Source: an uncultured Dehalococcoidales bacterium
Lineage (GTDB): Bacteria > Chloroflexota > Dehalococcoidia > Dehalococcoidales > UBA2162
Length of the DNA stretch: 64,000 bases
Reading direction: 5' to 3'
Assembly (NCBI GenBank): GCA_964453525.1
Contig: CAYVOV010000011.1
Coordinates: 36,633 to 100,632, forward strand
The position numbers were made by a program, and so were the translations under genes. The notes beneath the pieces were generated by a model. That model saw only the letters and a list, made by a program, of their open reading frames with translations, was not told the origin of the DNA and did not search any database. Shown here piece after piece: positions 56,798 through 63,993 of the stretch (within the stretch, counting starts at the first letter, position 1; every line of letters begins with the position of its first letter).

Positions 56798-57175
56798 TTG
56801 TTCAAACTCAGACTGATATTTATCTTATCCTTAATCATATTGCTGGGAGTTATTATCTCTATAATAGTCTTCATCCCTGAAGATGAGAATTATACGGAGT
56901 CAAAAAGAGTACAGATTATTGCGGGAGAGAACGAGTGGATATTACAGTGCAACATCACCAATGATAACGAGAAGGACACTAAATACACAATTCATGTTTC
57001 TGTAGATAACGCAGTCCGTAGAGACAGTACGGTAATTGCACCGGGGCAGACATATACCTACATTCAACATATATACCCTGAAAATCTGGACGAAGGGAAA
57101 ATAATATTTACCTTATATGAAGAAGGTAAAACAGAGCCGGTTGAAGAGGCTATTTACTACATAAATAAAAATTGA
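56798..57175 (+). CDS. Membrane-anchored hypothetical protein with a small beta-rich external domain
   Basis: N-terminal TM followed by an ITND-EKDTKYTI beta-rich pattern; first gene of the plus-strand operon. Confidence 0.65.
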   Translation: MFKLRLIFILSLIILLGVIISIIVFIPEDENYTESKRVQIIAGENEWILQCNITNDNEKDTKYTIHVSVDNAVRRDSTVIAPGQTYTYIQHIYPENLDEGKIIFTLYEEGKTEPVEEAIYYINKN

Positions 57176-57261
57176 CCTCTTGACAATTCGCTGTTTGCCT
57201 AATACTATGAATAATAATCTATGCAGTTCTGGAGAAATCTCTGCTAAAGCTAAGGGGGACG

Positions 57262-57972
57262 GTGGACAGACAGAGAGCTAGCATACCTAAAGGTATCGTA
57301 TTTAAAATAAGTATTACCTGGCTGTGTATTATTCTGTTAGCGGTTTTTTTCATAGCCATTAAATCGGGTGATGACCCGATAACCATGTCAATTCTACCTG
57401 AAGTCCCCAGAGAAAATGAGCCAATAGTCGTCACTTTCGATATATCAAACGTAACCGATTTACCGGCTACCACCAGCTACCAGTTGTATGTCAATGGCAG
57501 GCTTGTAGAAAGCGGGAGTGTTACAGTCACTCCGCAGTCCAGCACCAGACACCAGTATGCCTATGAGAATTCATTGAAGAGAGGCGAGCAGGTTAATTTT
57601 CTGCTTGAAACCAGTTCAGAAAGTGGTAATTCCGTAGAAGCAATCTCATTACCGGCATATCCACCGCAGTTAATGAGCAGCTTTGTCTCATTTGCTGCAT
57701 TCTCCACATCGGTGATGAGTTCAATGATATCAATGGAGTATTTCACCAATACCTTTGGCGGTACCGCCGGAATCAATACCGGTATAATAATCAGCGCTAT
57801 CCTTATTATCCTTATGGTATTTTTGGAACTGGTTCAAGCCAGTCCAGTCAGTAGAAGAATTAGCATTCTGGATAGATATAAATTCAATTTTAATAACCTG
57901 GCAACTATCCTGTTTATTGTTTTTGTGGGCATGGTGTTTACCAGAATAGTAATGATTATATCTACCGGCTGA
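57262..57972 (+). CDS. Hypothetical membrane protein (TM, beta-rich domain, 2-3 C-terminal TMs)
   Basis: Clean ORF with operon spacing and a clear hydrophobicity pattern. Confidence 0.65.
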   Translation: MDRQRASIPKGIVFKISITWLCIILLAVFFIAIKSGDDPITMSILPEVPRENEPIVVTFDISNVTDLPATTSYQLYVNGRLVESGSVTVTPQSSTRHQYAYENSLKRGEQVNFLLETSSESGNSVEAISLPAYPPQLMSSFVSFAAFSTSVMSSMISMEYFTNTFGGTAGINTGIIISAILIILMVFLELVQASPVSRRISILDRYKFNFNNLATILFIVFVGMVFTRIVMIISTG

Positions 57973-58037
57973 GAATAGCCGGATATTTGGAAGTAATAAC
58001 ATCCGGTAAAAAAGACCAGACAGCGAGAAGCTACTCC

Positions 58038-58544
58038 GTGAACAAGCTATTGATTCTATCGATTGCCGTTAGCCTGGTCTTATTAATATTACCCGCTATC
58101 TCATGTAAAGAGAGCCAGACAGGTAATCAGGAAAATAACGGCGCAGTTGAAAAGGCAAGCAGTCAACTCCTCATTCAGGTAGGACTGAAAAGGGAACAGG
58201 CTGCCAATCCTGACCCGGAGCGACTGGAGCAGATGAAAAATATGGGGATGAATATCGACAATCTGGAGAGTCAACGGATATTCATTCACCTCAAACAGGC
58301 GCTCAGCCCGTCTCAGACAGAAGAAATTGAGGCTCTGGGAGTCACTCTTTATCAGGAATCATGGATACCTCCGGTTGGGAATCACCCAACCGGCTTTCTT
58401 ATAGCTGAAATGCCTGTAGATAAGCTGGAGGCGCTGGCAGAACTGGACTATGTAATCAGGCTGGATACCGCTGAAACCCAGCTTGAACCGCAAAATGGTT
58501 TAAAACCTGATGTGGAAGATGGTTTAGAACCTCAGGTGGAATAA
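58038..58544 (+). CDS. Putative lipoprotein consisting of a stand-alone subtilase propeptide homolog
   Basis: GTG start with a lipobox-like LPAIS-C; 47/75 identical to the prodomain of the next gene. Confidence 0.75.
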   Translation: MNKLLILSIAVSLVLLILPAISCKESQTGNQENNGAVEKASSQLLIQVGLKREQAANPDPERLEQMKNMGMNIDNLESQRIFIHLKQALSPSQTEEIEALGVTLYQESWIPPVGNHPTGFLIAEMPVDKLEALAELDYVIRLDTAETQLEPQNGLKPDVEDGLEPQVE

Positions 58545-61732: not shown

Positions 61733-61754
61733 ATAGAAAAAATCAGAGGGTTGT

Positions 61755-62648
61755 TTGAAGATAAAAATACTTATCTGGTGCGCTGGCTGCCTGGCTATCT
61801 CCATTGTGTTTTTCCGGGAACTGTGGCCGAAGCTGCTCCAATGGCTGTCGCCCGGAGGACTGCAACAACACGGCGTTTTTCACTGGGGAGTGCTCGGGCT
61901 GTGCCTGCTGTGGCTCTGGCTAAAAAGGAAAGACTTGTTACCCAAGATGCAGAGTGCCAGGTTCAGTTACCCGTTTTCAATAGCCGGTATTGCACTGGTC
62001 TTATTATCCATATTTCTGCCGAGGTCCGATGATTTCCTGGTCTGGCTGATGTTGCTTGGCTGGCTGGGCGTTTCCGCCATCATTTTCACACGGGCGGCGG
62101 TGTTACCGTCAGCACTCCTTGGGGTTTACGGTTTCAGTGTCCTGTTTCCTGTACTCATAGATAGGTGGATAGGGGAGCCTTCGGCACTGATTGTGGCCAA
62201 TATAGTTGCCGGTTTAACAAAAATATTCGGATTACCTGTTACCAACGATGGGATTGTAATTCGCCTGACAGACGTTACCGGAGACACTATTTCAACGGCT
62301 ATAATCCCTAGCTGTGCAGGGTACGCAACAATCGGTGTGTTCATCGCGCTGTTTGCCCTGATGATGCTGGACGTGACATTGCCATTAAAAAAAGCCTGGT
62401 ATATTTTCCTAATCGGACTTGCCGGAACCTGGTTACAAAATATCGTCAGGGTATTTGCCTCTATTATCGCAGGCTACTTCTGGGGCATTGACGGACTGGA
62501 GGCAATGCATTACAACGCAGCCTATGTCATTTTTCCGCTCTGGTATGCCCTGTTTGCCTACATATACTTGAGGCAGTCCGGACGCAGTCTGACGCCCGTT
62601 AGAGAGAAAAGAGAAGTTGCCGTTGATGGCGACTCTGAGGAAACATAG
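61755..62648 (+). CDS. Exosortase/archaeosortase family transpeptidase (archaeosortase C-like candidate)
   Basis: Multi-TM protein with conserved Cys (PSCAG), QNIVR (Asn/Arg) and His (AMH); neighbours are PEF-CTERM proteins. Confidence 0.85.
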   Translation: MKIKILIWCAGCLAISIVFFRELWPKLLQWLSPGGLQQHGVFHWGVLGLCLLWLWLKRKDLLPKMQSARFSYPFSIAGIALVLLSIFLPRSDDFLVWLMLLGWLGVSAIIFTRAAVLPSALLGVYGFSVLFPVLIDRWIGEPSALIVANIVAGLTKIFGLPVTNDGIVIRLTDVTGDTISTAIIPSCAGYATIGVFIALFALMMLDVTLPLKKAWYIFLIGLAGTWLQNIVRVFASIIAGYFWGIDGLEAMHYNAAYVIFPLWYALFAYIYLRQSGRSLTPVREKREVAVDGDSEET

Positions 62649-62688
62649 GGCAAATAGCACTTCCCCGGTGTATTCTTGGAGGTTGTGA

Positions 62689-63993
62689 TTGAAGATAACC
62701 GGCTGGTTTACCTCCGTGTTAGGGACGAGTAGTTTTAGGGAAAGCTTGAAGATACTGCCTGAGAGGTCCCTCTATATAAATGCCTATTACCTGATGGCGG
62801 ACGTTGTCGTAGTCTCTATCCTTGGCTTTGCTTTCTGGACACTTGTTGCCAGGCTCTATAGTCCCGCTGAGGTCGGCCTAGCTTCGGCGACAGTAGCGGC
62901 AGTAGTCTTCATGGCAAGGTTGTCACGTCTGGGATTTGGATATGGTTTGATACGCTTTCTACCGGATATCGGGAATAGGGCTGGTGCCCTGATAAACAGC
63001 TGTTTTACAATCACCGGACTGATATCACTGGTGGCGGCGCTAATCTTCCTCAGCGGACTTAACCTGTGGTCTCCGGCTATTAGTTATCTTCACTCTCCGG
63101 GGCTTTTTATCTTCTTTGTGGCTCTCGCTATAGCATATACGGTATTCCTGCTTGTGGAGCAGGCCTTCATCGCTGGACGCCGTGCCGGATATGTCCTTTT
63201 GAAGAACACGGCAGCCGGTATAATCAAAATCGTAGCGGCAGTTGTATTTGCATCTATTTCCAATACCTCTGGTGTCTTTCTTTCGTGGGGCATAGCAATA
63301 TTTATGGCGCTGCTTGCGGCATTATTCCTGTTTTTACCTCGAGTACAGTCGGGGTATTTTCCTGTTCCCGTGGTAAACAAAGAAATGGTCAGCAATGTAC
63401 TGCATTTTTCACTGGGCAATTATTTTGCCGAGCTCCTCTGGTTTACTCCTCTAATGGTTTTTCCTTTGATTGTGATTAATATCCTTGGCGCCGAGTTGAA
63501 CGCCTACTTTTACATGCCCTGGACGATTGCCCAGATGTTGTTTGCCATTCCAATGGCGGTGTCCATGTCTCTCTTTGCCGAGGGGTCATATGATGAACAG
63601 TCACTGCGGGACAACGTTATGAAGTCCGTTTACTTATGCTTGATTATCCTGATTCCGGCAATCGCAATACTGTTCTTCCTGAGTGATAAATTATTACTCT
63701 TATTCGGCGGTGGTTACTCCCAGAATGGAGCCACACTCCTTCGCTGGCTGGTTATATCCGTTATACCTGTTAGTATCATTCATATTTCTTTGAGTGTGAT
63801 GAGGGTAAACAAGAATATTGCTGGAATAATACTTGTATCCGTCTCGGTTGCCTCTCTTTCCCTGCTATCAGGGTATATTCTTGTTATCAGCAGGGGATTA
63901 ACGGGCATAGGAATTGCCTGGCTGGCTACTCAGACATTGATAGCTGTTGTAATCGCTCTATCCTTTTTCTATAAATATCGTATTAAAAGATAA
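62689..63993 (+). CDS. Oligosaccharide flippase family protein
   Basis: SLYINAYYLM...LGFAFWTLVARLYSPAEVGLAS followed by many TM segments. Confidence 0.85.
   Translation: MKITGWFTSVLGTSSFRESLKILPERSLYINAYYLMADVVVVSILGFAFWTLVARLYSPAEVGLASATVAAVVFMARLSRLGFGYGLIRFLPDIGNRAGALINSCFTITGLISLVAALIFLSGLNLWSPAISYLHSPGLFIFFVALAIAYTVFLLVEQAFIAGRRAGYVLLKNTAAGIIKIVAAVVFASISNTSGVFLSWGIAIFMALLAALFLFLPRVQSGYFPVPVVNKEMVSNVLHFSLGNYFAELLWFTPLMVFPLIVINILGAELNAYFYMPWTIAQMLFAIPMAVSMSLFAEGSYDEQSLRDNVMKSVYLCLIILIPAIAILFFLSDKLLLLFGGGYSQNGATLLRWLVISVIPVSIIHISLSVMRVNKNIAGIILVSVSVASLSLLSGYILVISRGLTGIGIAWLATQTLIAVVIALSFFYKYRIKR

Follow-up and report, generated by a model that had tools for sequence, protein, structure and literature searches.

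A candidate PEF-tail protein-sorting cassette with an uncurated exosortase/archaeosortase-family enzyme in Dehalococcoidales

The window analysed here is a stretch of 64,000 nucleotides from an uncultured Dehalococcoidales bacterium of the Chloroflexota (contig CAYVOV010000011.1, positions 36,633 to 100,632). Between window positions 56798 and 63993, seven close-packed open reading frames (ORFs) on the plus strand, with intergenic gaps of 4-86 bases, include the genes for an enzyme of the exosortase/archaeosortase superfamily (hereafter Xrt), for an intramembrane glutamic protease of the CPBP family and for a secreted subtilase that ends in a short tail with the motif PEF. Together with two small membrane proteins, orf125 and orf236, these genes quite probably form a self-contained cassette for C-terminal protein sorting, in which an undescribed subfamily of the exosortase/archaeosortase superfamily would process PEF tails in the Dehalococcoidales. 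Direct observation covers the sequences, their scores with family models, the conservation of the catalytic residues, and a synteny and a tag that are kept across three lineages.

The enzyme, its tail and its cargo

Profile hidden Markov models from NCBIfam release 20 and from Pfam were used for family placement. Xrt scores above the cutoffs of both superfamily models (PF09721, 54.8 vs. 25.7 bits; TIGR04178, 37.4 vs. 23 bits), and all 23 homologues compared share its residues C187, R232 and H252, each of which is also conserved to 90% or more among 86 representatives obtained by clustering at 50%. The cognate tripartite C-terminal signal of the superfamily is present as well, on two proteins of the window. 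Xrt lies below the cutoff of every specific Xrt or Art model in the release: it reaches 29.6 bits with EpsH (TIGR02602, cutoff 105.55, the motif here being PEF and not PEP), 27.2 bits with ArtC (TIGR03762, cutoff 100), 21.6 bits with ArtF (cutoff 150) and 17.8 bits with XrtR (cutoff 150), and at E up to 0.01 it matches neither XrtA (TIGR03109) nor XrtG (TIGR03110, cutoff 102.75), with which its relatives score 12-25 bits. ArtC is the top-scoring specific model for all members tested (27-45 bits, or 33-45 bits for members other than the one in the window), and the relatives from Methanoperedens, at 42-45 bits, also stay under its cutoff. A profile search of 1.84 billion representatives returned 198 proteins with E values of 1e-10 or below, 57 of them at 1e-30 or below; just three of the 86 full-length representatives reach E up to 1e-20 with any curated family, which is ArtC in each case, at sub-cutoff scores of 68-88 bits (best 87.6). 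No relative of Xrt or of the CPBP protein was found by sequence among solved structures.

Judged from these scores, Xrt is an uncurated subfamily of the exosortase/archaeosortase superfamily, occurring in Dehalococcoidia, Peptococcaceae and Methanoperedenaceae, and would act on the PEF tail as a Cys transpeptidase or protease. An earlier first-pass annotation, made from the letters of the window, had proposed C-terminal sorting of the exosortase/archaeosortase kind to which the CPBP protease belongs; this proposal is supported. A grouping of the enzyme with an already described exosortase subfamily, which the same annotation had put up for checking, was looked for among the specific models and none of them reached its cutoff. 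In the literature that I searched, PEF-CTERM is discussed for archaea only, and no paper was found on an exosortase-type system or a PEF-type tag in Dehalococcoidia or Chloroflexi.

The two tails of the window can be read directly from the sequence, as the first-pass annotation had done in describing two protein ends with IPEFP, a transmembrane (TM) segment and RRK. The product of ORF 50123-51802 ends in ...ESAIPEFPTVLVAILALSLCVGIYLWMRRKAVTVATS and that of ORF 58549-60885 in ...QSAIPEFPTVIAAVIAFSLCAAIYLGIRRKAVPVHA, both with AIPEFPT, an 18-residue hydrophobic stretch, RRK and a further 6-7 residues. All window ORFs from 100 amino acids (aa) upwards were scanned, without a motif, for a C-terminal hydrophobic helix followed by a basic cluster; besides two polytopic membrane proteins, just these two cargo proteins were retrieved. 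The same tail recurs beside Xrt homologues in independent genomes and on unrelated cargo domains, with 15 tails adjoining Xrt homologues in 12 loci. PEF is invariant in all 15, directly before the TM helix, and is directly followed by Pro in 12; Tyr is found at +19 in 13 of the 15, and the basic cluster begins 23 residues from PEF (+23) in 12. The sole Cys of the tail, at +15 within the helix, is variable, being Ser, Val, Thr, Ile or Gly elsewhere. When about 300 kb of loci were scanned without a motif, nearly all tripartite tails turned out to be PEF tails near Xrt, and the few others look like noise. This joint recurrence of tail and Xrt is, at the level of comparison, the signature of an enzyme/tag pair.

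A search with the 146-aa C-terminal module in an index of 5.8 billion proteins gave 12 matches from 17 candidates, a number that does not suffice for a census of cargos. One remote candidate substrate, P0132 (L028, 3348-3722), which has the tail module far from any cassette, was rejected, being a 124-aa remnant with a stop codon just upstream and without a signal peptide.

The subtilase consists of a signal peptide, a pro-region, the catalytic domain, a pre-tail beta-sandwich and the PEF tail. The second cargo is likewise secreted and has a weak nitroreductase/SagB-like fold (SagB, 22 bits; PF00881, 21.2 bits; both sub-threshold). Over a C-terminal stretch of 144 aa, which comprises the pre-tail module (about 112 aa) and the tail, the two proteins are 65% identical. 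The pre-tail module is present in eight loci; an AlphaFold2 (AF2) model of this region, with a predicted local distance difference test score (pLDDT) of 79 and above 90 in the core, has a six-strand sandwich followed by the tail helix, and a fold search returned generic Ig-like and beta-sandwich matches alone, with no specific match in the PDB. In its role the module can be likened to the 'pre-PGF' domain of archaeal ArtA substrates. The cargo slot varies from locus to locus, and all the cargos found in it bear the tail: an S8 subtilase (window, L005), papain C1 with a lectin-like domain (L001, L004), matrixin M10 with TIG (L002), CBM96 (L008), a DUF5050 beta-propeller (L011), four TIG domains (L022), or no recognisable domain (L013, L015, L020, L021). 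With one or two tails per locus, the sorting system looks dedicated, or directed at few targets. No PEF tail is present on two other large secreted proteins encoded in the window, namely a surface protein of 1449 aa (7095-11444; domains DUF4838, He_PIG, Big_9 and cadherin-like) and a NosD-like beta-helix protein of 545 aa (38-1675), and the system is therefore not used by all such proteins here.

Conservation of the cassette

Xrt has 164 indexed homologues, and all named ones come from metagenome-assembled genomes (MAGs) of Chloroflexota, Dehalococcoidia or Dehalococcoidales. A survey in which one genome per GTDB species was scanned gave 25 loci. The closest of these are from Dehalococcoidales and Dehalococcoidia (58-71% identity of Xrt) and include the closed chromosome CP070645.1 (1.7 Mb); a further group from Dehalococcoidia and Chloroflexi stands farther off (38-45%), followed by MAGs of Peptococcaceae (37-39%) and of Methanoperedenaceae and Methanobacteriota (36-37%). 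CPBP adjoins Xrt in 19 of 24 loci, and in L027 in addition, orf236 is found beside Xrt and CPBP in 16 loci, including those from Peptococcaceae and Methanoperedens, and homologues of orf125 occupy the same position in eight (L001, L002, L009, L011, L014, L015, L021 and the window).

At the level of protein synteny, the order in clade I of the Dehalococcoidales is orf125, orf236, cargo, CPBP, Xrt. The same genes, the PEF-tailed one included, occur in shuffled order in Peptococcaceae (L011, L022) and Methanoperedens (L013, L020), where identity to the window is 48-56% for CPBP, 37-41% for orf236 and 36-39% for Xrt. On this comparison, the conserved unit is a five-gene cassette of orf125, orf236, a variable PEF-tailed cargo, CPBP and Xrt. 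The operon members named at first pass (subtilase, CPBP protease, a Cys/Arg/His enzyme of the exosortase family and a flippase) are matched by Pfam and NCBIfam models; orf125 and orf236, which are conserved in the cassette as well, were missing from that list.

In a neighbour-joining tree (computed in numpy, 200 bootstraps), the Xrt family is monophyletic with 99% support and the ArtC-like cluster falls outside it. The archaeal clade is supported by 100%, the Dehalococcoidia form two clades, and the Peptococcaceae are sister to clade II (72%). Deep nodes have bootstrap values of 2-40%, and therefore no donor and no direction of transfer is named here. What stands of the earlier suggestion that the system was possibly acquired from archaea is that one archaeal family shares it with two bacterial phyla.

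Several loci depart from the common arrangement. One or two genes for XRE-type helix-turn-helix regulators precede CPBP, Xrt and orf236 in L006, L007, L016 and L019. L009 is a decayed copy in which Xrt is represented by two overlapping ORFs (10001-10883) and the cargo is shortened to 132 aa (8739-9137). A 61-aa C-terminal fragment of Xrt (L023, 9890-10174) lies elsewhere on the closed chromosome that carries L004.

The CPBP protein scores 75.3 bits with PF02517 (cutoff 22.4), and its motifs EExxxR, FxxxH and HxxxN are invariant in 18 loci. It reaches the cutoff of none of the NCBIfam subfamilies, scoring 43.9 bits with Mrt_core (cutoff 100), 43.1 with MrtS (cutoff 130), 41.3 with MrtJ (cutoff 75) and 29.6 with TIGR03008 (cutoff 81). 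The XrtE fusion model TIGR04162 gives 37.1 bits, over the CPBP part only, with a cutoff of 150; here CPBP and Xrt are separate genes, 22 bases apart. The 351 database homologues of orf236 are all hypothetical proteins, and a segment of it, LPAYPPQLMSSFVSFAAFSTSVMSS, is nearly invariant; its AF2 model has a mean pLDDT of 66, with 80-89 in the beta-sandwich, and Foldseek returned generic Ig-like matches alone for the model, which point to no function. No Pfam or NCBIfam family is found above cutoff for orf125 (DUF1616, 16.5 bits, sub-threshold).

The remaining small gene of the operon, orf185, has no counterpart among the other loci compared. Over 131 aa its product shares 47% identity with the subtilase (residues 30-157), and it may act on the adjoining protease as an inhibitor or chaperone, in the form of a secreted protein or a lipoprotein. 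Its N-terminus is signal-like and contains a Cys (LPAISC).

Proposed mechanism and alternative explanations

If the cassette works as a sorting system, cargo such as the subtilase, or the second enzyme encoded 5 kb upstream, would be exported by Sec with its N-terminal signal peptide, and the C-terminal helix would retain it in the cytoplasmic membrane, with RRK inside and PEF at the outer face after the beta-sandwich stalk. The polytopic Xrt, with Cys187, Arg232 and His252, would then recognise the PEF motif and cut there, and would either, in analogy to ArtA, join the newly made C-terminus to a lipid of the membrane or to a glycan carried by a lipid, or release the cargo. The CPBP protease, its catalytic motifs being intact, could remove the helix-RRK remnant or cut a second time, and orf236 and orf125 could act as membrane-anchored beta-sandwich accessory factors. 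Cleavage, acceptor and the role of CPBP, as well as any glycosylation of the cargo, are what I infer from the arrangement as a whole. The host itself is a putative soil or sediment bacterium of the wall-less type. Chloroflexota have a monoderm envelope, and absence of peptidoglycan and presence of an S-layer are reported for Dehalococcoides and Dehalogenimonas (PMC10284905), which, with the closest loci being in Dehalococcoidales MAGs, agrees with the probably monoderm bacterium assumed at first pass.

A bolder version, which I regard as possible though doubtful, would see in Xrt, CPBP, orf236 and orf125 a portable two-protease machine for surface display that works across the divide between bacteria and archaea. 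Secreted hydrolases would be attached covalently to membrane lipid or lipid-linked glycan in the peptidoglycan-less, S-layered Dehalococcoidales, in the way of ArtA in haloarchaea, with CPBP as an obligate second catalytic step and the recurrent downstream glycosyltransferase of family GT2 supplying or modifying the acceptor.

Some observations weigh against a sorting cassette driven by Xrt. The tails do not reach the cutoff of the PEF-CTERM model TIGR03024 (23 bits), with 14.9 bits for the second cargo and 9.4 for the subtilase; among the relatives the best tail reaches 18.9 bits, the model does not match those from Methanoperedens, and the scores with PEFG-, PFE- and PVV-CTERM are lower than those with PEF-CTERM. 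Five loci of clade II of the Dehalococcoidia (L006, L007, L010, L016 and L019) have CPBP, Xrt and orf236 and no PEF-tailed gene in the DNA examined, and in L003 (3983-4852) and L017 (1931-2806) Xrt stands alone, with no CPBP, orf236 or cargo gene 2-4 kb upstream. Finally, the co-occurrence of Xrt and CPBP would fit a first cut by either enzyme.

In the main rival explanation, CPBP is the actual sorting enzyme, in the manner of a myxosortase, and Xrt has another role, for instance with glycan or exopolysaccharide. Its appeal is that CPBP enzymes have been proposed or shown to be the sorting proteases for MYXO-CTERM, JDVT-CTERM, Synerg-CTERM and CGP-CTERM (bioRxiv 10.1101/2023.06.07.544157; PMC11980579), that the myxosortases (MrtX/C/P/S/J/A) are likewise CPBP intramembrane proteases encoded beside proteins with tripartite tags, and that Mrt models give the best partial matches of the CPBP in the window. 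The constant company of CPBP and Xrt would suit this explanation too, and identity to Methanoperedens is higher for CPBP (48-51%) than for Xrt (36-37%). However, myxosortase tags have an invariant signature Cys, whereas the tails here have PEF and a variable residue at +15, and CPBP as the sorter is weakened because an invariant Cys is missing from the tag. All Mrt models stay below cutoff, Xrt is present in addition, and a P-E/G-x motif with helix and basic cluster is the hallmark of Xrt and Art systems. I consider this explanation unlikely.

A second rival is closer to the first-pass annotation, which had called the system an archaeal-type PEF-CTERM system with archaeosortase C; under this explanation it would be a true ArtC system recently taken from methanogenic or methanotrophic archaea. 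Archaeosortase C with PEF-CTERM (TIGR03762 and TIGR03024) is said to go back to Haft, Payne and Selengut in 2012. The likeness is considerable, as the superfamily and the Cys/Arg/His enzyme are the same, the tag has PEF, a helix and a basic cluster, and ArtC is the best specific model for every member of the family; moreover, the relatives in Methanoperedenaceae have PEF-tailed neighbours, and ANME-2d archaea are reported to have ArtC and PEF-CTERM proteins (PMC5244752). Yet all members, the archaeal ones included, lie far under the ArtC cutoff (27 vs. 100 bits for the enzyme in the window), the tags reach 9-19 bits where 23 are needed, and the nearest ArtC-like cluster among the 1.84 billion proteins, with its 68-88 bits, stands outside the family. 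The window enzyme is just 36-37% identical to its archaeal relatives, and within the family the Dehalococcoidia make up two deep clades and the Peptococcaceae a clade of their own, the deep nodes being those poorly supported ones described above. The tag here also differs by its extended conserved context (S-A-I-PEF-P-T, with Tyr at +19 and Trp at +21) and by the 6-16 residues that come after its basic cluster. The enzyme is accompanied by CPBP, as its obligate partner, and by two accessory membrane proteins, and the hosts are mainly bacteria, that of the window not being a methanogen-related archaeon. The archaeosortase C label was accordingly given up, and recent uptake of a true ArtC system is improbable.

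Very improbable is a third explanation, according to which the tails are plain C-terminal membrane anchors that come with a shared module and are not processed, the nearness of Xrt being incidental. Both window tails lie within the paralogous module of 144 aa, and their mutual likeness is therefore common descent; in addition, some Xrt loci have no tailed neighbour. Against this, AIPEFPT is invariant in 14 further sequences in which the preceding module falls to 33-41% identity, the tail occurs without the module on unrelated cargos in L008, L011, L013, L020 and L022, and spacing is fixed and synteny strict in three lineages.

That the contig is chimeric or archaeal, with the bacterial context an assembly artefact, has in its favour a GC content that climbs to 0.50 between 58 and 62 kb, where the neighbourhood has 0.40-0.46, and can be dismissed as next to negligible, as GC varies between 0.39 and 0.50 throughout the window anyway, as an independent Logan assembly of the single run SRR14802574 is identical to window positions 58960-64000 (5041 bases, zero mismatches) and runs on into genes for GT2, BacA, DUF2207 and MarC (GT2 and BacA in L026), and as the same cassette occurs in many Dehalococcoidales MAGs and on a closed chromosome, flanked by UvrB and FtsK (Pfam) and by FtsZ/FtsA-like genes (read from ORF translations). 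The exact match, which answers the question of contig integrity raised at first pass for the right-hand 5 kb, and the bacterial housekeeping neighbours therefore leave a chimeric or archaeal contig as no serious explanation.

Sorting of PEF-tailed cargo by Xrt with CPBP can be compared with three further systems. Exosortase E with VPEID-CTERM (TIGR04162) shares the pairing of an exosortase with CPBP and is dedicated to few, co-encoded targets, but XrtE is a fused polypeptide of alphaproteobacteria with another tag, whereas the genes here are separate and score 37 bits vs. 150. XrtA with PEP-CTERM and its CAAX-type protease (TIGR03109, TIGR03008) is similarly tied to a CPBP-family protease and to polysaccharide genes, but is a diderm system with the motif PEP and many targets, and the corresponding scores here are 29.6 vs. 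105.6 bits (TIGR02602) and 29.6 vs. 81 bits (TIGR03008). The best-studied mechanistic model is ArtA with PGF-CTERM in Haloferax volcanii (PMC7157517, PMC6098224), where glycoproteins are exported by Sec, have their tripartite C-terminal tag cut by an enzyme with Cys and Arg, and become anchored to lipid, all in a cell that has no peptidoglycan. It resembles the present system also in a 'pre-tag' domain before the tag, and differs in belonging to another subfamily (ArtA is not among the matches of Xrt), in its motif PGF and in its many targets per genome. ArtA is not known to have a CPBP partner.

The sorting principle, the superfamily annotation and the pairing with CPBP are already known, and the cassette extends this known principle and adds no new one. 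Dehalococcoidia are abundant in the subsurface and important in bioremediation, and a dedicated Xrt-type cassette with a clear tag offers a testable answer to the question how they hold their surface enzymes. The tag allows prediction of the surface-displayed proteome, here mostly proteases. A subfamily is added that no curated Xrt or Art model captures, with an exosortase paired with a separate CPBP and two uncharacterised membrane proteins, and as it occurs in Chloroflexota, Firmicutes and Methanoperedens, it lends itself well to studies of the role of the CPBP partner and of movement between domains.

Surroundings of the cassette and a possible link to glycan genes

The features of the window that bear on the cassette are collected in Table 1.

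Table 1. Positions of the cassette genes, their parts and selected neighbours in the window
Feature	Coordinates	Strand	Remarks
orf125	56798-57175	+	Cassette gene 1; N-terminal TM helix and beta-rich ectodomain
orf236	57262-57972	+	Accessory membrane protein: one TM helix, 7-strand beta-sandwich ectodomain, three TM helices
orf185	57987-58544	+	Stand-alone paralogue of the subtilase N-terminal pro-region
S8 subtilase	58549-60885	+	In-cassette cargo, 778 aa; PF00082 162 bits
Subtilase pre-tail module	60445-60780	+	Small beta-sandwich stalk, also in second cargo
Subtilase sorting tail	60781-60882	+	AIPEFPT, 18-residue hydrophobic helix, RRK, 6 residues
CPBP (Rce1-like) intramembrane glutamic protease	60935-61732	+	265 aa; PF02517
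Xrt, exosortase/archaeosortase-family enzyme	61755-62648	+	297 aa; PF09721, TIGR04178
Wzx-like polysaccharide flippase	62689-63993	+	434 aa; PF13440 28.8 bits
Second PEF-tailed cargo	50123-51802	+	Pre-tail module 51362-51694; tail 51695-51799
NusG/RfaH-like paralogue	52076-52633		86.7 bits vs RfaH model, cutoff 144.5 not reached
OmpR-type response regulator	55624-56331	-	Response_reg and Trans_reg_C domains; divergent, upstream of cassette
Wzz and P-loop Wzc-like protein	4101-6467

A glycan locus spans about 38 kb of the window; its genes encode transferases of the GT4 and Bac_transf families, DegT aminotransferases, epimerases and two Wzx proteins. The first-pass annotation had gone as far as a complete pathway of export, glycosylation, cleavage and anchoring wired to these genes, and of this the candidate sorting cassette stands, whereas the flippase and the glycan genes are not conserved with it and the scan of window ORFs turned up no oligosaccharyltransferase of the STT3 type. 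A homologue of the flippase, 63% identical, occurs only in L016; from this distribution the flippase is a locus-specific add-on and not a conserved part of the cassette. Housekeeping genes, and nothing related to glycans, come after Xrt in L002, L004, L005, L009 and L027. A GT2 gene directly follows the cassette in three separate branches, namely in the window (L026 5107-6306, just past the window end), in L016 (11625-12584) and in Methanoperedens L013 (10971-11939), and a gene for UDP-N-acetylglucosamine 2-epimerase, 43% identical to window 14400-15503, comes after it in L013, L018 and L020.

Both cargos of the window are rich in N-x-S/T sequons, the subtilase with 22 vs. 8.0 expected from shuffles (z = 5.3) and the second cargo with 16 vs. 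6.4 (z = 4.5). Such sequons are not enriched in the other secreted proteins of the window, and weakly or not at all in the cargos of other genomes. Glycosylation of the cargo is plausible here, and it is not a conserved feature of the system.

The RfaH-like, OmpR-type and Wzc-like neighbours listed at first pass were all found again (Table 1), and the tRNA remnant also listed there was seen by neither ARAGORN nor Rfam. Promoter and terminator scans gave promoter-like sites at no more than the shuffle expectation. The OmpR-type regulator may control the cassette; it is not conserved with it, its sole homologue being in L023, away from any cassette. An adjoining regulator of 194 aa (54508-55092), with a winged-helix Trans_reg_C domain and no intact receiver domain detected, may be a degenerate duplicate of it.

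Within the glycan locus, two ORFs are without a Pfam match (35778-37115 and 48013-48945). The product of the former, 445 aa long and with a hydrophobic segment at its end, may represent a polymerase or ligase resembling Wzy. A Peptidase_S24-like protein (28 bits) is encoded by 48946-49491, where the long glycan operon of the minus strand begins.

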